41,871 nt of DNA from contig DALYED010000001.1 of NCBI GenBank assembly GCA_031972735.1, positions 50,832 through 92,702 on the forward strand. The letters run 5' to 3'. Under the pieces are notes generated by a model, which worked only from the letters and a program-made list of their open reading frames with translations, was not told where the DNA came from and ran no database searches. Below are positions 6,667 to 37,472 of the stretch, piece by piece (the stretch's first letter is position 1; each line of letters opens with the position of its first letter). The stretch is from Minisyncoccota bacterium (GTDB lineage Bacteria > Patescibacteriota > Minisyncoccia > Phycocordibacterales > UBA6899). A program made the position numbers and the translations under genes.

Positions 6667-7917
6667 ATGCGACAATCACAACTATTCACTAAGACCAGAC
6701 GAGAAGCCCCAAAAGATGAAGTGTCAAAAAATGCTCAGCTCCTTCTGCGTGCAGGCTACATTTACAAGGAAATGGCAGGGGCATATGCGTTTCTCCCACT
6801 TGGTCTTCGTGTGTTCAATAATGTCATGAATATTATTCGCGAAGAGATGAATGCCATAGGTGGGCAAGAGCTATTCATGACTGCTCTTCAAGAGAAAGCT
6901 GTATGGGAAAAGACCAATCGTTGGAGTGATGACGTGGTGGATAATTGGTTTAAAACAAAACTAAAAAATGAGGTAGAGGTAGGACTTGCATTCACACACG
7001 AAGAACCACTTACCAATCTCATGCGCGAATACATTAGCTCGTTTCGTGACCTTCCATTTGCAGTCTACCAATTTCAAACTAAGTTTCGGAATGAAACACG
7101 CGCAAAGAGTGGGATTATGCGTGGACGGGAATTTATCATGAAAGATTTGTATTCATTTTCTCGCACTCAAGCTGAGCATGATGAATTTTACGAAAAGGCA
7201 AAGCGTGCATATGTGAATGTATTTCATCGAGTTGGATTAGGAGAGACTACTTACGTTACTTTTGCGTCAGGTGGGACATTTTCCAAGTATTCACATGAGT
7301 TTCAGACGATCACTGATGCTGGAGAGGATATCATTTACATCGATAAGGAAAAAAATATCGCCATAAACAAGGAGGTCTTCACCGATGAAGTACTTGCAGA
7401 TTTAGGTGTAGATAGGGCGAATGTGATTGAGGCGAAAGCAGTTGAAGTAGGGAATATTTTCAGTCTGGGTACTAAATTTTCTGATGCGTTTGACCTCAAT
7501 TTTATTAACGAAAAAGGGGAGAAAGAAAAAGTTGTCATGGGTTCTTATGGTATTGGACCTGCGCGCCTCATGGGTACAATTGTGGAGACACTCTCAGATG
7601 AGAAAGGCATCGTCTGGCCAATTGCCGTTGCGCCATTCCGCTATCATCTTGTCTCACTCGCACCAGACGACGAAGCAGTAAAAAAACTTGGTGATGAAAT
7701 TTATCATGCACTCACCGCGAAAGGAATCGAAGTCCTTTATGATGACCGAGTATTACCTACTGCTGGTGAGAAATTTGCAGATAGCGACCTCTTGGGTATT
7801 CCAACCCGCATCGTTGTGTCAAAGAAAGTGATTGAGAAGGGAGTACTTGAAGTGAAAGATCGTAAAACAGGAGAAGTCTCTGCGCTTACGCTCGAGCAGT
7901 TCCTCGCAATGTCATAA
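6667..7917 (+). CDS. proS: Prolyl-tRNA synthetase, bacterial-type but lacking the INS editing domain
   Basis: The N-terminus MRQSQLFTKTRREAPKDEVSKNAQLLLRAGYI matches the bacterial ProRS N-terminus. About 416 aa from ATG 6667, against about 570 aa for INS-containing enzymes. Class II core and anticodon-binding C-terminus present. Confidence 0.92.
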   Translation: MRQSQLFTKTRREAPKDEVSKNAQLLLRAGYIYKEMAGAYAFLPLGLRVFNNVMNIIREEMNAIGGQELFMTALQEKAVWEKTNRWSDDVVDNWFKTKLKNEVEVGLAFTHEEPLTNLMREYISSFRDLPFAVYQFQTKFRNETRAKSGIMRGREFIMKDLYSFSRTQAEHDEFYEKAKRAYVNVFHRVGLGETTYVTFASGGTFSKYSHEFQTITDAGEDIIYIDKEKNIAINKEVFTDEVLADLGVDRANVIEAKAVEVGNIFSLGTKFSDAFDLNFINEKGEKEKVVMGSYGIGPARLMGTIVETLSDEKGIVWPIAVAPFRYHLVSLAPDDEAVKKLGDEIYHALTAKGIEVLYDDRVLPTAGEKFADSDLLGIPTRIVVSKKVIEKGVLEVKDRKTGEVSALTLEQFLAMS

Positions 7918-7927
7918 GTAAAAAAAT

Positions 7928-7952
7928 ATGACCCGCAGATTGTGCAGGTCAT
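7928..7952. terminator. Convergent (bidirectional) terminator candidate between proS and the 97-aa gene
   Basis: ATGACC...GGTCAT with an inner GCA/TGC pairing. An A-run lies upstream and GTTGTT downstream. Confidence 0.5.
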
Positions 7953-7956
7953 GTTG

Positions 7957-8250
7957 TTATCGATACAAGAAGGGTTTGTTTGCTTGGATTTGTTCAATGT
8001 ACAGTTTTCCATTGAGCGAAATGAAATATCTGATTATTTTCGTGCACGGTGACATGTGTTGTCCCGGTTTCAAATACGTCTTCTCGTAACCCTCAGTTGC
8101 AACTTGAGCAATTTTTTCAAACGAGTGATTTTTCCCACCACGCGCCCTTGCTCTTTGGTGTGGGGATACTGTGTCATCGCTCACAATCACGCAACATTGT
8201 TTATGAAAACCATGTTCACCTTGAGTCGTAATTACAGTCATAATAGACAT
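7957..8250 (-). CDS. Hypothetical protein (97 aa)
   Basis: AAGGAG lies 6 nt upstream of the ATG at 8250 (MSIMTVITTQGEHGF...). Divergent from mreB-2. No family recognised. Confidence 0.55.
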   Translation of the reverse strand: MSIMTVITTQGEHGFHKQCCVIVSDDTVSPHQRARARGGKNHSFEKIAQVATEGYEKTYLKPGQHMSPCTKIIRYFISLNGKLYIEQIQANKPFLYR

Positions 8251-8361: not shown

Positions 8362-9411
8362 ATGTTTGAACGATTTTACAACATGCTTGGAAGTGATATT
8401 GGTATTGACCTTGGAACGGCAAATACCCTTGTCTATCTTCGCGACCACGGCATCATTATTAATGAGCCATCTGTCGTTGCACTCAACCAAAAGACGAACC
8501 GTGTTGTAGCAGTGGGGATGGACGCAAAGCAAATGCTCGGACGTACTCCAGGGCATGTTGTTGCAATTCGCCCACTTGTCGATGGAGTGATCTCGGATTT
8601 TGAAGTCACCGAAGAAATGCTTGCTCACTTTATCAACAAAGCAGTCAAGCTTTCAAAGAAGCAGGGTAGACCTCGTGTTGTGATTGGAGTCCCATCTTCG
8701 ATTACCAATGTTGAAACACGCGCAGTGAGAGATGCCGCAATGAATGCAGGTGCACGTGAGGTGTACATTGTCGAAGAACCGATGGCTGCTGCTATCGGCA
8801 TTCATCTTCCAGTAAAAGAGCCAGTTGGATCAATGATTATCGATATCGGTGGTGGCACAACGGACATCGCAGTCATTTCGCTTGGCGGTATTGTAAACTC
8901 AAAAAATCTCAAGATTGCTGGAGATCGATTCAATACGGATATTATTTCTTATATCCGCGATGAATTTAAAATTCTTATCGGAGAGCGTACTGCTGAAAAT
9001 GTAAAAGTCGCAATTGGTTCTGCAATGAAACCAAAAGAGCCCATGGAGGCAGCTATTCGCGGACGTGACTTACTTACCGGTCTTCCTCGAGAGGTGATTG
9101 TCACCGATGCTGATATTCGTGAAGCAATTATTTCCTCGATTCAAGTACTTGTTGATTCAACAAAAGAAGTACTTGAGACAACCCCCCCAGAAATTCTTTC
9201 AGATGTGATGAATAGAGGTATTGTGCTGGTTGGAGGTGGAGCGCTCATTGTAGGGCTTCCAGAACTCCTTGCGCAGACACTTAAAATCCCTGTCACTACA
9301 TCAGATGACCCACTTACTGCGGTGGCGCGAGGTACAGGAATGGTGATTGAAAATATTGATGAGTACCGCGAGGTACTTATAGAGCACGATAACGAGCTTC
9401 CGCCGAGATAG
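8362..9411 (+). CDS. mreB: Rod shape-determining actin homolog MreB (paralog 2, heads the mreBCD-mrdA cluster)
   Basis: 349 aa with IGIDLGTANTLVY, IDIGGGTTDIAVISLGG and LVGGGALIVGLPEL. Confidence 0.93.
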   Translation: MFERFYNMLGSDIGIDLGTANTLVYLRDHGIIINEPSVVALNQKTNRVVAVGMDAKQMLGRTPGHVVAIRPLVDGVISDFEVTEEMLAHFINKAVKLSKKQGRPRVVIGVPSSITNVETRAVRDAAMNAGAREVYIVEEPMAAAIGIHLPVKEPVGSMIIDIGGGTTDIAVISLGGIVNSKNLKIAGDRFNTDIISYIRDEFKILIGERTAENVKVAIGSAMKPKEPMEAAIRGRDLLTGLPREVIVTDADIREAIISSIQVLVDSTKEVLETTPPEILSDVMNRGIVLVGGGALIVGLPELLAQTLKIPVTTSDDPLTAVARGTGMVIENIDEYREVLIEHDNELPPR

Positions 9412-18845: not shown

Positions 18846-20165
18846 ATGAAACGATTTCTTAAACTCATTGTTGTCGCAGTGCTCACTTGGGAAGCCAACA
18901 TAGTACTCCGTAAGTACAAGCCTTTCATAGTTGCTGTGACTGGCTCGGTAGGGAAGACTTCAACAAAAGACGCAATCTTTGAAGTATTGAAGGGTACCAT
19001 TCAAGCTCGCAAAAGTATGAAAAGTTTCAATAGTGAACTTGGAGTACCTCTCACAGTACTTGGACTCGAAAATAAATGGTCTAGTGCATTTGGTTGGCTC
19101 GGGAACATCATTCGTGGCTTTTCGATGATCTTGTTTCCAACCCCATTCCCTCAATTGCTCGTGCTCGAAGTTGGTGCTGATCACCCAGGCGACATTAAAC
19201 GCATCACATCATGGCTTACCCCTGATATCACTGTGGTAACCCGTATTCCAGATCTTCCTGTACATGTTGAATATTTTTCATCACCAGAAGAAGTAAAAAA
19301 GGAAAAATCCGAACTTGTTAAAGCGATCAAGCAAACAGGAGTTTTTGTAGCGAATGCTGATGATCCAGCTGTAGTGGAAATGTCAGCGCTTACTCGTGCT
19401 CATATGATTACCTATGGATTTGGCGAAACTGCAATGATTCGAGGGAGTAAGCCACAGATTGCATATCGTGAGAAAGACGGACGCAACTATCCAGTTGGTA
19501 TGATGTTTCAGATCGATCACCATGGTGATGAATATCCAGTACTCCTGATGAATATCATTGGAGACCATGCTTGTACCGCAGCGCTTGCAGCATGTGCAGT
19601 TGGAGTTGCACGAGGAATACCAATGACACATATCATCGCATCACTTTCAGTACTCGAAACTCCACGCGGGCGCATGCGTATCATTGCTGGAAAAAATGGA
19701 AGCACTATCATTGATGACAGTTACAATTCATCACCAGTTGCGCTTTTGGCGGCACTCGAAACATTGAAAACCATTGATGCAAATCATCGTATTGCGGTGT
19801 TAGGTGACATGCTTGAGCTTGGTACGTATGCAAATACTGAACATTGGAATATCGGTCGCACTGTTGGGTCGTGGGTCGATCAGCTTGTTACCGTAGGTCA
19901 GCGATCTCGAGGGATTGCCGAGGGGGCAAAGACGGCAGGACTGCTTGAAGGCAAGATACGTACATTCATTAACTCAAAAGATGCAGGCGAGTGGCTACTC
20001 TCGGAGATAAAAACAGGGGATGTCATACTCGTCAAAGGCTCTCAAGGGTCAGGTGAAAACATGATTCGGATGGAGCGCGCAATCAAAGAAATCATGGCGC
20101 ATCCCGAGGATGCTGGCAAATTACTCGTAAGGCAAGAATCCGAATGGCTTGCTCAGTATAAATGA
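18846..20165 (+). CDS. murF: UDP-MurNAc-tripeptide--D-alanyl-D-alanine ligase MurF (lacks the canonical N-terminal domain)
   Basis: P-loop VTGSVGKTSTKDAI begins at about aa 31. The MurF-type motif FNSELGVPLTVLGL is present, and a Mur ligase C-terminal domain follows. Confidence 0.85.
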   Translation: MKRFLKLIVVAVLTWEANIVLRKYKPFIVAVTGSVGKTSTKDAIFEVLKGTIQARKSMKSFNSELGVPLTVLGLENKWSSAFGWLGNIIRGFSMILFPTPFPQLLVLEVGADHPGDIKRITSWLTPDITVVTRIPDLPVHVEYFSSPEEVKKEKSELVKAIKQTGVFVANADDPAVVEMSALTRAHMITYGFGETAMIRGSKPQIAYREKDGRNYPVGMMFQIDHHGDEYPVLLMNIIGDHACTAALAACAVGVARGIPMTHIIASLSVLETPRGRMRIIAGKNGSTIIDDSYNSSPVALLAALETLKTIDANHRIAVLGDMLELGTYANTEHWNIGRTVGSWVDQLVTVGQRSRGIAEGAKTAGLLEGKIRTFINSKDAGEWLLSEIKTGDVILVKGSQGSGENMIRMERAIKEIMAHPEDAGKLLVRQESEWLAQYK

Positions 20166-20225: not shown

Positions 20226-20633
20226 TCAATCCTGATCGTTTCCGTATATTGCACGCAACTTGCGTTCGGATTCTGCTTTTTGACTGCGACTGATTTGCAT
20301 CTCAATACCAAGCTTCTCTGTATATTCGTACAGTGCATAGGTGAGTCCATAGATCTGTGCACGACCATCTTTCGGGATCAAGATGGTCTGATGCTTATTT
20401 TCTTTAGGGAAATATCCACGCAGGCGGTAATTTCCTTGAAATTGAACGAGGTCAATCTCAGGACCAATCATTGTGGGTACAGAAGCAGGAATGAACGGGC
20501 CTATGAAATTCAGTACTCCGACTGATGAGGAGACGGCAATCACATAGGATGTGTCTTTCTCGATCGTGGTAGGGGAAATCGGTAGGGGAAATGAAAACCG
20601 CGTCACAGGTGGCGCAGTTATAAAGTCGTGCAT
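20226..20633 (-). CDS. Hypothetical protein (135 aa)
   Basis: ORF with AAGGA 9 nt upstream of the ATG. Shares the bidirectional terminator at 20193-20210. No family recognised. Confidence 0.5.
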   Translation of the reverse strand: MHDFITAPPVTRFSFPLPISPTTIEKDTSYVIAVSSSVGVLNFIGPFIPASVPTMIGPEIDLVQFQGNYRLRGYFPKENKHQTILIPKDGRAQIYGLTYALYEYTEKLGIEMQISRSQKAESERKLRAIYGNDQD

Positions 20634-20753
20634 GATTCTTTTCCTTATCGTGCAGGTTGTCGAAAGAACGGATGTTCAAATACCATTTTACACATATTTT
20701 AACCTGTGTCAAGAAAACTTCGCAAGCTAAGTAATAGGAGAGTGCGAAGCATG

Positions 20754-20782
20754 TTGACAGATATTCTTTTAATTATTACTGT
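20754..20782 (+). promoter_or_regulatory. Promoter candidate for yqhA-like gene: TTGACA-17-TACTGT
   Basis: TTGACA at 20754-20759, a 17-nt spacer and TACTGT at 20777-20782. The roughly 40-nt leader carries a GAGGG SD. Confidence 0.55.
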
Positions 20783-20828
20783 AAGCGTCGATAATTTGTT
20801 CTCCAATTCAACAAAGTGAGGGTAGTAT

Positions 20829-21359
20829 ATGAAATCTGAGAAACCGATTAAACTGCTTGGAAGTACAATTTTCTTCAGTCGTTGGCTCCAAGCACCCCTG
20901 TATCTAGGGCTCATAGTTGCGCAGGGTGTTTATGTATTTCATTTCATGAATGAATTACTCCATCTTGTACAGCGCACAACATCTATTTCTGAGACAGAGA
21001 TAATGCTTGTTGTGCTCGGTCTCATTGATGTTGTCATGATTGCCAACCTACTTATCATGGTGATTATTGGCGGCTATGAAACATTCGTTGCTCGACTCGG
21101 GAATGAAGATCATCCCGACCGACCAGAATGGCTTGGACATGTCAATGCAAGTACCATGAAGATAAAACTCTCCATGGCATTGATTGGAATTTCTTCAATT
21201 CACTTACTCAAGACATTTATTAATATCGATCATATTACCGATAAAGCAGTGATGTGGCAGGTCGTGATTCATATTACATTTCTTGTTTCGGCGATTGCGA
21301 TGGCATTTACTGATTACCTAATGAAAAAGACCGCAATCAGAACTGTCACTACTCACTAG
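20829..21359 (+). CDS. yqhA: UPF0114 family inner-membrane protein (YqhA-like)
   Basis: 176 aa. SRWLQAPLYLGL, IGGYETFV and SSIHLLKTF align by eye with E. coli YqhA. GAGGG SD, TTGACA-17-TACTGT promoter at 20754-20782, and a terminator downstream. Confidence 0.85.
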   Translation: MKSEKPIKLLGSTIFFSRWLQAPLYLGLIVAQGVYVFHFMNELLHLVQRTTSISETEIMLVVLGLIDVVMIANLLIMVIIGGYETFVARLGNEDHPDRPEWLGHVNASTMKIKLSMALIGISSIHLLKTFINIDHITDKAVMWQVVIHITFLVSAIAMAFTDYLMKKTAIRTVTTH

Positions 21360-21376
21360 TATCTTTGTGGAACACA

Positions 21377-21395
21377 ACAGCCCCATCAGGGCTGT
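21377..21395 (+). terminator. Intrinsic terminator of the yqhA-like gene
   Basis: ACAGCCC-catca-GGGCTGT followed by T8. Confidence 0.85.
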
Positions 21396-21492
21396 TTTTT
21401 TTGCACAAGGAGAAAGCAGGAGAGAAATGGGAGCTTCTTCAGAAGTAGTGGAAAGCACTTTGATTCTAAAGAGTGAGTAAAACTTTCTGATC

Positions 21493-21503
21493 ACTTAGGG
21501 TCA
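21493..21503 (+). repeat. Inverted partial copy of the tRNA-Glu acceptor 3' strand (CTTAGGGTCAC)
   Basis: The same 11-mer recurs at 21802-21812. TAGGGTCAC is the reverse complement of GTGACCCTA at 21681-21689 and 21856-21864. Confidence 0.7.
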
Positions 21504-21539
21504 CTTTGAACTTCGCGCTGAGTATTCTGTGTCAGGAGT

Positions 21540-21582
21540 CACTAAGTCTTTTGGTTTTACTTGCACACCAAAAGCCTAAGTG
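21540..21582. other. Long imperfect hairpin (14 of 16 bp, 11-nt loop)
   Basis: CACTAAGTCTTTTGGT (21540-21555) pairs with ACCAAAAGCCTAAGTG (21567-21582). Confidence 0.6.
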
Positions 21583-21647
21583 TTCACGACCCTGCCTCAC
21601 CATCTCGCAAAGCATCGATAAGGTTCCGGCTTCACAAAAAGAACAAA

Positions 21648-21665
21648 ATCCCGCGCAGGCGGGAT
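21648..21665 (-). terminator. Intrinsic terminator downstream of the 134-nt palindrome
   Basis: ATCCCGC-gcag-GCGGGAT, followed on the minus strand by TTTTGTTCTTTTT. Confidence 0.7.
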
Positions 21666-21678
21666 GTTTGTGTCTTTA

Positions 21679-21701
21679 TTGTGACCCTACAGAGAATCGA
21701 A
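21679..21701 (-). repeat. 23-nt perfect direct copy of the tRNA-Glu 3' end (T-arm 3' half plus acceptor plus 3' flank)
   Basis: TTGTGACCCTACAGAGAATCGAA at 21679-21701 is identical to 21854-21876, which lies within and just 3' of the tRNA gene. Confidence 0.9.
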
Positions 21702-21813
21702 GCTTACAGCTTCAGTACGCCTTTGCGATTTTCTCGAAGCAAAGCTTCTCGTAAATAGCGCAAAGCCCTTCGATTCTCTGACGCAGTGAAGCAGTTCACT
21801 GCTTAGGGTCACA
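21680..21813. repeat. 134-nt rod-like imperfect palindrome built on tRNA-Glu 3'-end sequence
   Basis: Outer 10-bp stem is 21680-21689/21804-21813 and the second 13-bp stem is 21690-21702/21768-21780. A bulged 8-bp hairpin lies at 21783-21802. Inner stems are 21719-21727/21759-21767 and 21736-21740/21744-21748. Confidence 0.8.
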
Positions 21814-21815
21814 GA

Positions 21816-21850
21816 CAAAAATGGCGCCTCTTGCGAGACGCTCATTTTTG
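21816..21850. terminator. Hairpin with flanking A/T runs immediately 3' of tRNA-Glu
   Basis: The core GCGCCTC-ttgc-GAGACGC has one mismatch and is extended by CAAAAATG/CATTTTTG. T-runs are present on both strands. Confidence 0.65.
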
Positions 21851-21856
21851 TATTTG

Positions 21857-21928
21857 TGACCCTACAGAGAATCGAACTCTGATTTGAGGCTTGAGAAGCC
21901 TCCGTCCTAACCGTTAGACGATAGGGCC
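21857..21928 (-). tRNA. tRNA-Glu (anticodon CUC), no encoded CCA
   Basis: Hand-folded cloverleaf. Acceptor GGCCCTA/TAGGGTC (one G-U pair), D arm GTCT-AACGGTTA-GGAC, anticodon arm GAGGC-TTCTCAA-GCCTC, T arm CAGAG-TTCGATT-CTCTG, discriminator A. Confidence 0.9.
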
Positions 21929-22061
21929 ATAAGTAAACATGGTAACATACAGGTTCGATTCTGAGAATCGGTCACACATAAATTTCCTGACGGAAATTTT
22001 GTTCGACCCAGTCTCGCGACGCTTGCCTTTCGAAGACTCAAACTTGCGTACCGCTCCGACC

Positions 22062-22124
22062 CTGAGTTCTGTACTCAAGCCAAGTCGTTGGCTTGTTACG
22101 ATGCTGACATCGTACAGAACTCAG
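22062..22124. other. Compact three-way-junction fold (possible structured RNA domain)
   Basis: P1 is CTGAGTTCTGTAC (22062-22074) pairing with GTACAGAACTCAG (22112-22124). Hairpin A is AAGCCAA-GTCG-TTGGCTT (22077-22094). Hairpin B is ACGATG-CTGA-CATCGT (22098-22113). Confidence 0.6.
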
Positions 22125-22153
22125 CTCCGCTTTTCGGCTTGAGCACCTTCATT

Positions 22154-22174
22154 TAACCGTGAGACGATAGGGCC
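22154..22174 (-). repeat. 21-nt copy (1 mismatch) of the tRNA-Glu 5' end (acceptor 5' strand plus most of the D arm)
   Basis: TAACCGTgAGACGATAGGGCC at 22154-22174 compares with TAACCGTtAGACGATAGGGCC at 21908-21928. The copy cannot close a D stem, so it is not a tRNA. Confidence 0.85.
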
Positions 22175-22294
22175 ACTACATATCTGAAAACTTCCACAGA
22201 ATAACGAATTTCGCTGATTCTGTAAAGGATTATCATGATTATGTCCATGCTGAGCTATCCTGATAATTTAGACAAGAACTGCTACAATAGCTCA

Positions 22295-32779: not shown

Positions 32780-35700
32780 TTAGTTTTTCATTTTTTTGAA
32801 CTCACCAGGCCAGCGGTAAAAGAATACTGGAACAAACACGAGTGTGAGTATCATCGCAAAAGTGAGCCCAAACATGATCGAGAATGCGAGCGGTCCCCAA
32901 AGTGGTGATGCAGTTGTAAGCGGTATCATACCTATGACAGTTGTGATGGTAGTGAGCACGATGGGGCGAAGACGTACTGCGGATGCTTCAACTATCGACT
33001 CATGAAGCGATAATTTATTGTCCTTATCACGAAGGATACGCAAGATTGAATCGAGAAGAATGATTGCATGGTTGATGATCACTCCAGCAAGTGCTATGAC
33101 TCCCAGCATCGATGAGAATGAAAGCGCTTGTCCCGAGAGTGCGAGTCCAAGGAATACTCCAATGAGTGAAAGGGGAATGATAAGAATAAGGTAGAGCGGA
33201 AAGCGCAGTGAATTGAATTCAAGCACGAGTATTGCGAATGCAAGGATCATGCCCGCCAACAGTGCAAACCCCATCTCACTGAATGTTTTATTGACGTCCT
33301 CATTTTCTCCACCGTACTTTACTTCAACAGATTGAGGTGTTTTAACATCAGCAAATTGTTTTTTGAATATGTTCGTCGCTTCAACTGCCGTCATGTCAGG
33401 AGAAAGCTGAGCAGAAACAGTAACGATACGCTTTCTGTCTTCATGACTGATTGCTGCACGACTTTCACTTACACTCGTGTCGATGAGTGAGCCCATTAGT
33501 ATTGTTCCTGAAGGAGTAGCGATGGGAATTTGTCTGATGCTATCAATAGTCGTTTTAATGGTGTCTTCGGGATTTACAAAGTTTGCATTAAGGTCGAGCT
33601 TCACTACAACATCGATATCTTTTTGGTCTTTTTTGATGGTAGTTGCAATATTTCCTGATACTCCAGTGCGTAGTGTCTGAGCGACCGCAGCAGCAGTGAG
33701 TCCTACTTGCGCTGCTTTGTCTCTATCAATGGCAATTTCAAACTGTGTGCCGTCATCGCGTAACGAGGTTTGGACATCAAGAGTCCCTGGGATATTTTTC
33801 AATATTTTCTCAGCCTTATCAGCTGCAATACCAAGCTCATTTAAGTCATCACCGACAAACTTGATCGCAACAGGTGCTCCTGATGGGGGACCGTTCGATG
33901 CTTGTTTAACGTGAATATCTGCATCGGTAATAGGTGCGAGTTGTTTGCGCAAATCCTCCATAATATCGTTCGAGGTTTTGTTTGCTCGATCCTTCTTGAG
34001 GATAACGGTAATATTTGCAAGCTTCGAGCCTGCTCCTGGTCCAGTGTCACTAAAGGCAGAGCTTTCTCCAACTGTCGTCACAAATGATTCGACATACTGA
34101 TTTCCATAGAGCATCTCTTCAACTTCGCGAGTCGCAAGATCGGTAACTTCAAGAACAGTACCTTGCGGTTTCTCAACCTGTACATAGATAAAATCTTGAT
34201 CACCAGCAGGGAAGAACGAAACTTTCACAAGACCGAATACAGGAAGCAGTATTGCTCCAATAAACCCAAGAAACATAAGTGAGAGAAATATGTTTTGAGA
34301 ACGACGGCTGTCGAGAATTCCACCAAGGAATGATTTGTACCATCCCTTAGCTTTTTCAAAATACACTTCCTGCATGTCTTCAAACTTGCTCTTATGTTCT
34401 TTGGTAAGCACAACTGCAATGAGTGGAACCATACCAAGTGCAACAACAAGTGATGCAATCAAGACGAAGATCAATGTGAAGGGGATAGAAGCAATGAATT
34501 TCCCGACAATACCAGAGAGGAAAAAGAGTGGTGCAAAAAAGACAACAGTAGCCATTGTGCCCGCGATAAGTGGCCATGAATATTCATTGATAGACGCAAT
34601 AGCTGCCTTCTCAGCACTTCCATGTATTTTGATACGGGTATGAATTGCTTCGGTGACCACGATACCAGAATCGACTAGAATACCGATTGCAAGAATAAGC
34701 GAAAAGAGGGAAAGAAAGTTTATGGTATTACCCGATGCATACAGACCAATGAATGCGATCACGAATGAAAGTGGGATAGAGAGAGCTGCTACCACTGATT
34801 CGCGCCACCCAATAGTGAGAATGAGCATCAATATCACAAGTCCTACCGTTTCAAGGCCGACACGAGTGAGTTCCTTCAGATCTTTTGTGACGAGTGCTCC
34901 TCGATCAAAAGAGATAACAACATTTGCTCCGATGAGCTCGGTTTTTTTAAGTTCTTCGATGCGGTTCACTACATTTTTTGCAATCAGCGTCACATCTCCA
35001 CCAGTTTTTTTGTAGATGTTCACCGTGATTGCTTGCGATGATGGCTCGCTCCCGATACTGATACGTGAATAGGATTTCGGTATTGCGAGCCCATCAGAGA
35101 CGAATGCAATATCACTCAAATAAATAGGTACTCCATTTTGAGAGGCGATTTCAAGTGGAGGGATCTGTGCTGGCTCATCTATCGAACCTGCAAACTTGAT
35201 TGGGTAGTTGATATCTGCCACCGTAATGTTTCCAATTGGGAATGATGCATTTCCTGTCGATAGTGCAGCGATCACTTGATCAACACGCAGTCCGTATTTC
35301 TCAAGGGCTTCTTTTTTGACGACTACTTGAACTTCATGCGCTCGTGTCCCAGTGACGGTAACTTTTGATACACCTTTAATTTTTTTGAGTTCATCTTTTA
35401 TGTCATCACCAAGTTTTGCAAGCGCACCTGCAGGTGCATCAACTGAGATTGAAGCGATTACGATTGGCTGATCTGCAAAATTCACTCGCGACACATTTGG
35501 TTCGTCTGCTTCTTTTGGAAGTTCAGCTTTTGCGCGGTCAACAGCATCTTTGAGGTCTTGAATTGATTTATCGACATTGGCACTAGCGGTAAACTGTGCG
35601 GTGACGACAGAAACACCCTCGAGTGAAGATGAGGTTACTTTGTCGATATTTTCTATGTTTGCAACTTCATCTTCGATCTTATTGGTGATCAATTTTTCTG

Positions 35701-35878
35701 TATCCTCTGCAGATGCACCACGCAGTGTCGTTGATACAATCCCAATAGGAACAACTACTTCAGGTGAAGATTCTTTTGGAATGGAGATCAGTGCAAAAGT
35801 ACCACTCACGGTGAGTGCAAACATTAAGAGATACGTGAATGCTCGCTTTTTGAGAAAGAATATCCAGAGGTCGTGCAT
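32780..35878 (-). CDS. RND-family efflux transporter (AcrB/HAE-like inner-membrane pump)
   Basis: 1032 aa with 12-TM RND architecture and two large extracytoplasmic loops. Starts 4 nt after the MFP gene. Confidence 0.92.
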   Translation of the reverse strand: MHDLWIFFLKKRAFTYLLMFALTVSGTFALISIPKESSPEVVVPIGIVSTTLRGASAEDTEKLITNKIEDEVANIENIDKVTSSSLEGVSVVTAQFTASANVDKSIQDLKDAVDRAKAELPKEADEPNVSRVNFADQPIVIASISVDAPAGALAKLGDDIKDELKKIKGVSKVTVTGTRAHEVQVVVKKEALEKYGLRVDQVIAALSTGNASFPIGNITVADINYPIKFAGSIDEPAQIPPLEIASQNGVPIYLSDIAFVSDGLAIPKSYSRISIGSEPSSQAITVNIYKKTGGDVTLIAKNVVNRIEELKKTELIGANVVISFDRGALVTKDLKELTRVGLETVGLVILMLILTIGWRESVVAALSIPLSFVIAFIGLYASGNTINFLSLFSLILAIGILVDSGIVVTEAIHTRIKIHGSAEKAAIASINEYSWPLIAGTMATVVFFAPLFFLSGIVGKFIASIPFTLIFVLIASLVVALGMVPLIAVVLTKEHKSKFEDMQEVYFEKAKGWYKSFLGGILDSRRSQNIFLSLMFLGFIGAILLPVFGLVKVSFFPAGDQDFIYVQVEKPQGTVLEVTDLATREVEEMLYGNQYVESFVTTVGESSAFSDTGPGAGSKLANITVILKKDRANKTSNDIMEDLRKQLAPITDADIHVKQASNGPPSGAPVAIKFVGDDLNELGIAADKAEKILKNIPGTLDVQTSLRDDGTQFEIAIDRDKAAQVGLTAAAVAQTLRTGVSGNIATTIKKDQKDIDVVVKLDLNANFVNPEDTIKTTIDSIRQIPIATPSGTILMGSLIDTSVSESRAAISHEDRKRIVTVSAQLSPDMTAVEATNIFKKQFADVKTPQSVEVKYGGENEDVNKTFSEMGFALLAGMILAFAILVLEFNSLRFPLYLILIIPLSLIGVFLGLALSGQALSFSSMLGVIALAGVIINHAIILLDSILRILRDKDNKLSLHESIVEASAVRLRPIVLTTITTVIGMIPLTTASPLWGPLAFSIMFGLTFAMILTLVFVPVFFYRWPGEFKKMKN

Positions 35879-35882
35879 GGTA

Positions 35883-37472
35883 TTAGGATTTAGTGATGGT
35901 TACTTTTTGACCATCTTTCAGACCGCGGGCGTCAGTCACAATGATCATATCAGGGGTGATTCCTTCTGTGATCACAATCTGGTCTCCGAGAAGGGTCCCG
36001 TCTTTGACACTATGCGCAACGAGCGTACTTGAACTATTTACCGTAAATACAACAGGACCAGTTGGAGTGATCTTAAGTGCCGAGAGGGGAATTTGAATCA
36101 CCGATGCTTTCTTTGTTGCTGAAGCCAGTGCTCGTGCTGCATTGATGCGCACACTCTGGCCATTGGTTAAATCACTCGTATTGCCAGTTATACCGATGCG
36201 AATTTCAATTTTTTTCGTTTTTGGATCAAGGGCAGATGCGATTCGTGTAATGACACCATTCGTCGTGTCATTAATGATGACTTTTCCTCCAACTTTAAGT
36301 ATTTTTGCATCATCGTCAGTGGCATATGCAAGAATTTCAAGTGCACCATTATTTGATACCACTGCAATATCTCCAAACGGTGCAACATAATCTCCAGTCT
36401 CAACTGCAAGAGAATTTATTGTTCCACTAATCGGACTTCGTACAATAGTCTTTTCAAGGCGTGATTGTGCCGCATTGAGTGTGCCAAGTGCAGATTTTAC
36501 ACTTGCATCTGCTGTAAGTGCAGAGCCTTGGCTACTTTGTGTAAGATTATTTGCCGCTACCTTACTTGCAGCAATACTTGCATTGAGACTGCTTCGTGCC
36601 GCTCCAATTGCGGTGAGTGATCCAGAAATACCACTACGCGCAAGTCCGTTACTTGCCCTAAATCCATCAATTCCGGATTGTGTTACGGAAGAGTCTGGGA
36701 TGGCATGGGTGAATGCGAAAGAGAGATCATCGAGATAATTTTTAATCGTACCCGTCTCACTTTCAATGGCATCTAATTCTGCTACGAGATCACTCTCTGT
36801 TGTTAGTGTGCGATTGTGTGACTCACGGTTCTTGAGCAAGTTTTCGATGGTCGCACGTACTTGTGGGAGTGCGATGGAGAGTTTTGCATCACTGGTGTTT
36901 ACAATGAATTGTGGATCACGTGTTTGTGGATTACGAAAAGCACCATCTGATTTAACGCGCACTGCATCATCAAGTGCGACATATGCAGCATTGATGGCAT
37001 TGAGTGCTGATGATTTAGCGCTTTCGAGTGAAAGATTCGCTGAGCCATTTGAAATCTCGGCTGTGTTATTTGAGAGCAAAGCTGAACCTTGCCCTGCCTT
37101 CGCAGCATCATACGCTCCACTTGCCTGAAGCAGTCCTGCGCGTTCTGCACTATTATCAAATTCGGCAATTACTTCTCCTGCGCTTACATAATCGCCAAGT
37201 TTCTTATACACCATCGCAAGCTTGCCTGATGACTCCGCTCGTACATTTGCCTCACTGCGAGACACAACAGTGCCTAAGAGTGGAAGAGGGGAAGTGTTCA
37301 GTGAAAGATCACCTACAGAAGAAAGTGTAACTCCACGATCTGCTTGTACTACTACTTCAGCATCTGGAGTAGTAGTACTCTTATAATTTACAGCAACGAG
37401 TACAATCACCACGATAATTACTATACTGGTAATTTTTTTTGTGAGTGACATATCTTTAATGAAATCAAACAT
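35883..37472 (-). CDS. Efflux membrane-fusion protein (HlyD/periplasmic adaptor family), unusually long
   Basis: 529 aa with an N-terminal TM anchor, lipoyl/barrel-sandwich-like ends (GDYVSAGEVIAEFD..., VETGDYVAPFGDIAVV) and a long Ala/Ser-rich helical insert. Confidence 0.8.
   Translation of the reverse strand: MFDFIKDMSLTKKITSIVIIVVIVLVAVNYKSTTTPDAEVVVQADRGVTLSSVGDLSLNTSPLPLLGTVVSRSEANVRAESSGKLAMVYKKLGDYVSAGEVIAEFDNSAERAGLLQASGAYDAAKAGQGSALLSNNTAEISNGSANLSLESAKSSALNAINAAYVALDDAVRVKSDGAFRNPQTRDPQFIVNTSDAKLSIALPQVRATIENLLKNRESHNRTLTTESDLVAELDAIESETGTIKNYLDDLSFAFTHAIPDSSVTQSGIDGFRASNGLARSGISGSLTAIGAARSSLNASIAASKVAANNLTQSSQGSALTADASVKSALGTLNAAQSRLEKTIVRSPISGTINSLAVETGDYVAPFGDIAVVSNNGALEILAYATDDDAKILKVGGKVIINDTTNGVITRIASALDPKTKKIEIRIGITGNTSDLTNGQSVRINAARALASATKKASVIQIPLSALKITPTGPVVFTVNSSSTLVAHSVKDGTLLGDQIVITEGITPDMIIVTDARGLKDGQKVTITKS

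Follow-up and report, generated by a model that had tools for sequence, protein, structure and literature searches.

We have analyzed a stretch of 41,871 nucleotides from a Minisyncoccota bacterium (the 41.9-kb window) and, within it, the non-coding spacer of 875 bp (21360-22234) that surrounds a tRNA-Glu(CUC) gene. Judging from the sequence and its comparison with metagenome loci, we regard it as an evenly balanced proposition that the spacer consists of non-autonomous insertion modules stacked at an attachment hotspot, the end of the tRNA. The best preserved module, a unit of ~135 nt that we call X, has a conserved fold and closes with a perfect copy of the tRNA 3' end. Positions are those of the window unless a label such as L007 or L088 is given; these labels designate the metagenome loci that were fetched. 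As a preliminary description of this DNA had it, the region holds a single tRNA, on which ARAGORN (21856-21928, minus strand, the sole tRNA of the whole window) and the Rfam tRNA model (62.1 bits at 21857-21928, minus strand) agree. The intact gene (21857-21928) does not encode the CCA, and over 100 metagenome loci have exactly the same acceptor, D and T arms. The spacer reaches 22294 if the start of the downstream gene follows the placement of gene callers on other contigs.

A folded unit between two copies of the tRNA end

The perfect direct copy of the tRNA 3' end reported earlier is indeed present: the 23 nt at 21679-21701 equal those at 21854-21876, and a 20-nt version of the pattern has two matches in the window against 0.02 expected. 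The copy of the 5' end on the upstream side (21 nt with one mismatch, 22154-22174) was likewise recovered, with a chance expectation of 0.00; both expectations refer to matches beyond the tRNA itself. The DNA flanked by the two 3'-end repeats amounts to 152 nt and is non-coding.

Here lies unit X, the downstream unit, which on the tRNA (minus) strand reads as follows. It opens with UGACCCUAAG (segment S, 21802-21811), complementary to the 3' acceptor strand of the tRNA and resembling its 5' acceptor strand equally well (GACCCUA vs. GGCCCUA). The hairpin P2 (CAGUGAA-CUGC-UUCACUG, 21784-21801) and segment A, GUCAGAGAAUCGAAG (CAGAGAAUCGAAG at 21768-21780), follow, the latter complementary to tRNA positions 53-64, that is, the T loop and the 3' strand of the T stem. 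Then come the long hairpin P3 (21719-21767), a GUACUG box with the P4 hairpin and its GUA loop (21700-21718), and CGAUUCUCUGUAGGGUCA (segment E, 21679-21701), the att-like copy of positions 53-72 plus CAA that ends the unit. Segments S and A pair with E; the A/E stem is a perfect 13-nt inverted repeat joining 21690-21702 to 21768-21780 and corresponds to RNAalifold helices 2-3. Seen on the plus strand, 21768-21813 repeats tRNA positions 53-72 almost completely in inverted orientation, with a hairpin of ~20 nt interrupting the copy. Two separate inverted copies of the acceptor strand had been described before; they do exist, as CTTAGGGTCAC at 21494-21504 and 21802-21812, but the second belongs to this larger inverted copy.

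The structure of the unit is conserved among loci. RNAalifold predicts the S/A-E, P2, P3 and P4 helices from an alignment of 12 loci. In the alignment A1, 92% of the cells are paired, vs. 82.7% in shuffles (none of the 500 reached this value), and the covariation score is 0.332, vs. 0.156 in shuffles and 0.05-0.13 when the partners are slid. P2 is a perfect hairpin of 6-8 bp in 18 of 18 modules, with many different stem sequences; double compensatory changes affect four of the five basal pairs of P3 and compensatory changes five of the six pairs of P4, around a box and a loop that are invariant. The GUACUG-P4 core is also found in upstream pseudo-tRNAs and, once, by itself (see below). A role of P4 as a half-site for a serine recombinase was discarded, since its stem covaries rather than keeping its sequence. 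The copy in the window has a minimum free energy of -63.3 kcal/mol (z = -6.9). Both of its strands fold almost equally well, but over the whole set 18 of 23 modules have a more stable fold in the tRNA-sense strand than in the opposite one (mean -4.2 kcal/mol; Wilcoxon p = 0.005, only indicative given that the modules are related by descent), and G-U pairs number 53 on the tRNA-sense strand vs. 27 on the antisense. This bias favors a folded strand with the polarity of the tRNA, which both RNA and single-stranded DNA would fit.

Terminator-like sites are also over-represented (six found, 1.0 expected). They include 21824-21841 (minus strand) and 21648-21665 (both strands), so that the two hairpin plus T-run terminators proposed earlier, near 21816-21850 and at 21648-21665, were both recovered by the scan. 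The first is part of the trailer and intrinsic terminator of the downstream unit (21812-21856, minus strand, identified by the terminator scan and inverted repeats), whose stem extends into a long palindrome running from the 3' acceptor strand of the tRNA to segment S; equivalent palindromes in other loci carry compensatory changes. The second, the terminator after X (21635-21665, minus strand, scoring on both), is homologous to the trailer located directly 3' of the tRNA in L088. A known RNA family that accounts for the helices, which would have made the region less unusual, was not found: in Rfam 15 (including tmRNA, Y RNA, group I introns and T-box) only the tRNA itself matched, all other hits being noise far under the gathering scores. 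Inspection by eye of the conserved boxes against hammerhead, group I/II intron, T-box, signal recognition particle and RNase P motifs gave no convincing likeness either.

Recurrence, rearrangement and inserted genes at the tRNA end

A metagenome scan with the exact last 20 nt of the tRNA retrieved at least 120 loci, 119 of them usable. Nearly all of those listed contain a full tRNA-Glu gene; the acceptor, D and T arms do not differ among them, and the anticodon stems vary. In about 20 of the 119 the tRNA has the downstream layout of the window: behind a terminator, positions 53-64 reappear inverted at +61 to +78, and positions 55-72 in direct orientation at +151 to +190. A self-copy of at least 12 nt within 600 nt was found for 38 of 120 listed tRNA-Glu genes, where by our own arithmetic ~1 is expected, and around 12 listed loci carry 5' copies upstream, extending from positions 1-12 to 1-34. 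A covariance model of X found 22 copies in the fetched loci, almost exclusively beside tRNAs, and a single one in the 41.9-kb window. Because the scan required the exact 20-nt end, all the Glu units share it, and the covariation of S/A with E can therefore be judged only across different tRNAs.

Such a comparison is provided by units next to tRNAs for other amino acids. In L030, A is CCAGGACUCG and E is CGAGUCCUGG + UGGGCCCG beside tRNA-Trp, and GAGAGGAUUCG and CGAAUCCUCUC, respectively, beside tRNA-Thr. At tRNA-Ser, the corresponding segments are AAGGGAUUUGAA and UUCAAAUCCCUU + CCUCUCCGC in L110, and GUGAGAUUUG and CAAAUCUCAC in L120. In each case the pairing segments copy the adjacent tRNA around the same cores. 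Since A and E match each neighbor, the long stem has been kept through full replacement of its sequence and mirrors the tRNA next to it. The same conserved cores are thus seen beside four different tRNAs, and at two tRNA loop positions, with their unpaired bases kept.

Two further arrangements deserve mention. L055 contains a stand-alone core (GAGUGAG-hairpin-GCAAGAC-P3-GUACUG-P4, 9480-9592) among housekeeping genes, 8.4 kb from the nearest tRNA; we considered it as a possible island boundary and ruled this out, as the intervening genes are housekeeping. Upstream of the tRNA-Ser(cga) of L078 (~7760-8060) there are tandem units of ~136 nt, each opening with tRNA-Ser positions 1-12, and their next hairpin has a UGAA-CUGC-UUCA apex, the same as P2 of X.

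Presence and absence of units, and a difference between strains, coincide with the repeat. The order of units is tRNA, X, type C (a second module, described below) and decayed X in the window, tRNA, X, type C in L118, and tRNA, type C, X in L088. In L118 the segment comprising tRNA, X and repeat is collinear with the window at 78% identity. In L088 the tRNA directly adjoins the sequence that in the window and L118 comes after the repeat, and the indel of X is bounded exactly by the latter (...TTCGATTCTCTGTAGGGTCACAA). L007, from another sample, matches the window at 99.7% identity as far as 21687 and then diverges inside the 3' copy, in the tRNA-strand reading immediately upstream of GGGTCACAA; its divergent tail of 76 nt had no match among the fetched sequences. 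The search of relatives for occupied and empty sites that had been recommended produced a second pair besides L088 and the window/L118. L052 and L079 are 100% identical over 127 nt of tRNA and upstream flank and 98.7% in unit X, and in L052 the tRNA and X are separated by 12.4 kb, of which L079 is the empty counterpart. The junctions read CTGTAGGGTCAC followed by C... and ...TTGTGGGGTCAC followed by A, with GGGTCAC flanking the insert, and the segment encodes a split large serine recombinase and a LexA-methylase fusion. Unit X is older than the insertion in this locus. A smaller insert is seen in L074, where a Fic-family gene lies between two copies of the series GG(G)TCA-CAA-terminator-X. The 530-aa open reading frame (ORF) found between tRNA and unit in L078 lacks any Pfam domain, and it bears no real resemblance to the recombinases.

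The absence of an integrase from the window, stated in the preliminary description, was borne out, as no recombinase domain was found anywhere in the 41.9 kb. In two relatives, however, large serine recombinase genes convergent with the tRNA abut its end (L038, 12059-13588, minus strand, 509 aa; L081, 508-2040, minus strand, 510 aa). Despite an identity of only 34%, their products share the C-terminal sequence VTLQRIEL, for which the strand antisense to tRNA positions 50-72 codes; the stop codon after it is the complement of positions 47-49. This shared ending at such a low identity indicates an old family of elements that has kept the attachment sequence inside the end of the recombinase gene. 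No tyrosine recombinases were found in the ~0.8 Mb of fetched loci with a loose screen by simple motif.

Beyond X, the downstream side contains the type C module (GUGAAGCCGGA...GAGGCAGGGUCGUGA..., 21527-21635, minus strand), which holds the long hairpin at 21540-21582 that had been noticed before and is confirmed here. Its core consists of GAAGCCGGA, a hairpin, GAGGCxGGGUCGCGAG, another hairpin and CUUGUGACC; the window copy is 72-78% identical to those of L026, L088 and L118, and the core is also found beside the tRNA-Trp and tRNA-Thr of L030. Farther out lies a decayed, older unit X (GUGACCCUAAG ... UUUAGAAUCAAAG, 21458-21504, minus strand) that aligns with the intact distal X of L088.

On the upstream side, the duplication of the 5' end turned out to be real but part of something larger, an insertion-riddled tRNA-Glu pseudogene (21953-22174, minus strand) whose degenerate anticodon arm continues to ~22136. 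It comprises positions 1-21 (22154-22174), the degenerate arm (22136-22153), a type-C-like insertion (21970-22135), and positions 55-61 fused to an inverted T-arm piece (21953-21969). The plus-strand, T-loop-like piece reported earlier is there as well (21953-21977), and corresponds to a head-to-head junction of direct and inverted T-arm pieces. Interrupted pseudo-tRNAs of this kind are found upstream in at least 12 loci, where they are tRNA-Glu pseudogenes interrupted at the anticodon-loop position by the same cores. A tRNA intron was ruled out, since every insertion-bearing copy is a truncated tRNA rather than a pair of exons; the intron mode of ARAGORN merely joins the 5' fragment to the neighboring intact gene. 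Some of the pseudo-tRNAs also carry further insertions, either a GC-rich palindrome or a small GIY-YIG gene. The palindrome (~20-30 nt) sits between tRNA-Glu positions 12 and 13, as CCTGCCTGCCGGCAGGCAGG in L035 and L113 and in a longer variant in L054. The GIY-YIG nuclease gene (Pfam E = 9e-16) lies in L054 and L113 between the tRNA-Glu 5' fragment and the intact tRNA, ~60-300 nt upstream of the latter, a placement that suggests a homing-endonuclease-type insertion into a tRNA copy.

Cargo is likely present in the window too. The Mur ligase (18846-20165) is linked to tRNA-Glu(CUC) in 34 listed loci, the window included; in the 12 most compact ones, 16 to ~260 nt separate the ligase from the tRNA 3' end, vs. 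1.69 kb in the window. The additional space is occupied, besides the modules, by a 135-aa ORF (minus strand) and a UPF0114 gene (plus strand) at 20226-21359, candidate cargo for which no homologue was found in any other fetched metagenome locus. The closest named relatives of the UPF0114 protein are labelled Gammaproteobacteria, whereas the LysRS of the window has its named relatives, at 64-75% identity, in Parcubacteria or Paceibacterota, so that the genome is that of a bacterium of the candidate phyla radiation (CPR). The closest UPF0114 relative (P0003) shows no shared synteny. The two genes are therefore likely to be cargo of the hotspot, horizontally acquired in appearance. The tRNA block is convergent with the Mur ligase in 13 of the 34 loci (including the window) and co-directional in 21, and L118 is inverted relative to the window, implying that the block has been inverted repeatedly.

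Origin of the modules

The scheme that we favor, at the even confidence expressed above, would work as follows. The 3' end of tRNA-Glu would be a reusable attachment site in this Parcubacteria/Paceibacterota lineage. A downstream unit would start just past a tRNA-type 3' end (with GGGTCA and CAA on either side of the boundary), bring its own terminator and end in a fresh copy of tRNA positions 53-72, so that each insertion would spare the tRNA and recreate the site. Older units would move outward and decay, giving the order tRNA, intact X, type C, decayed X, two cargo genes and the conserved Mur ligase, and the upstream side, with the insertion-riddled pseudogene, would be its mirror image. 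In its logic the scheme agrees with what has been described of successive integrations in tycheposon islands (see below). Since the units encode nothing, they would have been moved in trans, the candidate movers being the large serine recombinases located at this tRNA end in related contigs, the sole candidates seen. Movement by site-specific recombination, the enzyme involved and the reason why the unit must fold are the parts of the scheme that we infer. Compared with a pair of attL/attR sites, the window does have an intact tRNA with a flanking direct repeat, and empty sites bounded at the repeat exist (L088 for the window/L118, L079 for L052); the flanked DNA of the window contains no recombinase, while those of the other elements, in L038, L081 and L052, do. 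Thus, of the earlier suggestion of att sites, a minimal element or a recombination hotspot, the part that stands is sustained by the indel of a unit at the repeat, the divergence of L007, the 12.4-kb insertion and the recombinases at the tRNA end.

Several observations weigh against this scheme. Besides the lack of a recombinase in the window, the P2, P3 and P4 stems covary, unlike recombinase half-sites, and this speaks for a folded single strand. With the covariance model of X no match was obtained in the serine-recombinase loci L038 and L081; as these elements contain no X-like sequence, X does not derive from them by deletion. The presence and absence of units could be explained equally well by deletion between direct repeats. 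The 12.4-kb insert of L052 is partly housekeeping-like (HisRS, an ABC transporter), for which reason this case may be a rearrangement rather than an island. Finally, viral contigs gave no match to either the tRNA 3' end or the S-P2-A pattern. The known small elements to which X might be compared are only partly alike. Like cis-mobilizable elements (CIMEs), the units are bounded by copies of an attachment sequence, have no recombinase and stand in tandem with others; CIMEs, however, are described as deletion derivatives of a known autonomous element, and X is far smaller and without similarity to the serine-recombinase elements. With miniature inverted-repeat transposable elements the units share their small size, non-coding nature, 13-nt perfect inverted repeats (A and E) and stable hairpin fold, but they differ from them in having tRNA-matched ends, no target-site duplication, one copy in 41.9 kb, and a branched fold with covarying hairpins instead of a simple inverted-repeat stem.

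The covariation might be better accommodated if the modules were mobile units of a new kind, attaching through a folded single strand (of DNA or RNA) that is programmed by the neighboring tRNA, a possibility that we consider unlikely but worth stating. Segments S and A would pair with E and rebuild a duplex copy of the 3' end of the adjacent tRNA, and this would account for hairpins that covary, for the strand bias, for the matched ends at four tRNAs and for the cassette-like alternation with cargo. By analogy, one may think of the attC sites of integrons and the folded site of the CTX phage. The likeness to attC sites and to clusters of them lacking an integrase (CALIN) includes imperfect palindromes, paired outer segments (S/A vs. 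E), variable covarying centers, a possible alternation with cargo genes (L074) and the lack of a nearby integrase. It is an analogy only, drawn from general knowledge of integrons, whose sites have the core GTTRRRY and its inverse RYYYAAC. The units described here have no GTTRRRY core, IntI-type integrase or Rfam match, they end in GGGTCACA / TGTGACCC, and their outer segments copy the neighboring tRNA and not a fixed consensus.

It is also possible, if rather improbable from what the sequences indicate, that the units are genes for structured tRNA-like RNAs, the foremost rival of our scheme. An acceptor-like stem (GACCCUA:UAGGGUC) and a long "T stem" (CAGAGAAUCG:CGAUUCUCUG) around P3/P4 would be combined with a P2 arm replacing the D and anticodon arms; the RNA would be produced together with the tRNA or following it and excised by the tRNA-processing enzymes, which is compatible with mobility, and the copy of the tRNA end would be mimicry of the cognate acceptor/T helix rather than an insertion scar. 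Everything said above about the fold can be cited in its favor: the covariation on A1 in both measures, the perfect P2 of 18 modules with different sequences, the invariant unpaired GUACUG box and GUA loop, the better folding of the tRNA-sense strand (18 of 23 modules), the z-score of -6.9 in the window, and the long stem re-created with other sequences beside Trp, Thr and Ser, to which the terminator on the tRNA strand after X can be added. On the other hand, there is no promoter-like site upstream of the unit and a terminator stands between the tRNA and S, while some units have no terminator of their own. The acceptor pairing is absent from some units (L030, Trp and Thr), and in the window the two strands hardly differ in folding. 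Truncation, fusion or decay is seen in many copies (L021, L069, L090 and window 21458-21504), which is unusual for a needed RNA, and template switching can keep the arms of a palindrome matched without any RNA function. The units have in common with known tRNA-like RNAs (the tmRNA domain, Y RNA/YrlA, mascRNA) an acceptor-like helix, a tRNA-type 3' end and T-stem-like stacking, but they have neither a T loop nor a mimic of the D arm, and the failure to match any Rfam family also counts against them.

Template switching also enters into a passive explanation, according to which repeated partial duplication of the tRNA by unequal crossing-over or slippage, homogenization of the palindromes and unrelated small insertions would have produced the spacer with no dedicated system or function. 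Tandem arrays repeating the leader or the terminator (L118 upstream, L016, L043/L063, the tRNA-Ser of L078), the variable length of the 5' copies (from positions 1-12 to 1-34) and the inverted position of the tRNA block with respect to the Mur ligase, seen in 13 of 34 loci, agree with it. We nevertheless find it quite unlikely, as slippage would not place P3-GUACUG-P4 or the type C core beside four different tRNAs; the stand-alone copy of L055 among housekeeping genes, the cargo genes and recombinases at the same junction, and the strand asymmetry of the G-U bias speak against it too.

The main suggestion of the preliminary description, that one or two large prophages or islands integrated at the tRNA and, later deleted almost entirely, left ordinary scars, appears very unlikely now. 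The direct repeats of tRNA ends and the lack of an integrase in the window fit it, and there is a precedent in the tycheposon islands of Prochlorococcus, whose inserts are flanked by partial tRNAs and in which successive integrations leave such partial copies while pushing the older ones outward (bioRxiv 10.1101/2020.12.28.424599). The window and its related loci resemble tycheposons in their partial tRNA copies, outward-pushed older insertions and scattered degenerate partial tRNAs. The units, however, are of 135-220 nt and gene-free, with a conserved, covarying multi-hairpin fold and an internal inverted copy of the att-like segment, and where tycheposons have tyrosine recombinases, the enzymes seen at this tRNA end are large serine recombinases. 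Random remnants would not yield one unit of ~135 nt with a fixed layout and covarying hairpins in ~20 loci, nor equivalents matched to other tRNAs. The fragments are better described as the ends of a conserved family of structured repeats found beside several tRNAs than as scars.

An assembly artefact, or chance similarity, is hardly credible. Short-read contigs 100% identical to the window end at 21725 (in two samples) and start at 21855 or 21900, leaving 21726-21854 uncovered. The break at 21855, however, is the start of the tRNA 3'-end sequence common to fetched loci of many organisms, and assembly graphs may branch at this point when organisms sharing the tRNA end share a sample. L118 is collinear, the same arrangement appears in many independent assemblies, and the chance expectations for the repeats (0.02 and 0.00) are negligible.

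Genomic setting and implications

Around the tRNA, the window is a housekeeping stretch of chromosome with ProRS, LysRS, CysRS, DnaB, PBP2, MreB/C, MraZ/W and the Mur ligase, and an even base composition throughout. The organism is represented in the metagenomes SRR4000971, SRR4000976, SRR25018354 and SRR6410602, besides the source sample of the 92.7-kb contig. The 875-bp spacer had no match in a plasmid collection. Exact matches to the proteins of the flanking genes came from short contigs only, which revealed the strain variant but were of no help for synteny. The histidine phosphatase was tried as a query against a genome collection and retrieved distant relatives only; among them, the tRNA of L001 (Patescibacteria) has another anticodon and context and was judged uninformative. 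An RND (resistance-nodulation-division) efflux permease of 1032 aa and a membrane-fusion protein of 529 aa are encoded at 32780-37472 (minus strand) of what is apparently a Parcubacteria genome, an unexpected pair in a lineage usually held to be without an outer membrane. There are also two full-length MreB paralogues (1945-2958 and 8362-9411), with MreC and PBP2 in the same 10-kb stretch.

A search of the literature on CPR, tRNA-like RNAs, serine recombinases and related topics found no description of these modules. To our knowledge, the routes by which CPR bacteria, with their tiny genomes, gain genes have been little described. The locus points to one such route, in which the ends of tRNA genes serve as reusable docking sites that are marked by a conserved family of small structured modules and at whose junctions serine recombinases and cargo genes are also found. 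If the modules do fold to present the end of the tRNA, they would amount to a structure-based retargeting of the site by copying the neighbor, something that, if true, would bear on the formation of islands and on a possible programmable integration system. If they are RNAs instead, they would represent a widespread and undescribed family of tRNA mimics. There is a practical side as well, since the modules are a probable cause of contig breaks at tRNA genes, and tRNA ends common to members of a community may fragment assemblies at points such as 21725, 21855 and 21900. Either way, the modules provide a marker for insertion hotspots in metagenome-assembled genomes.

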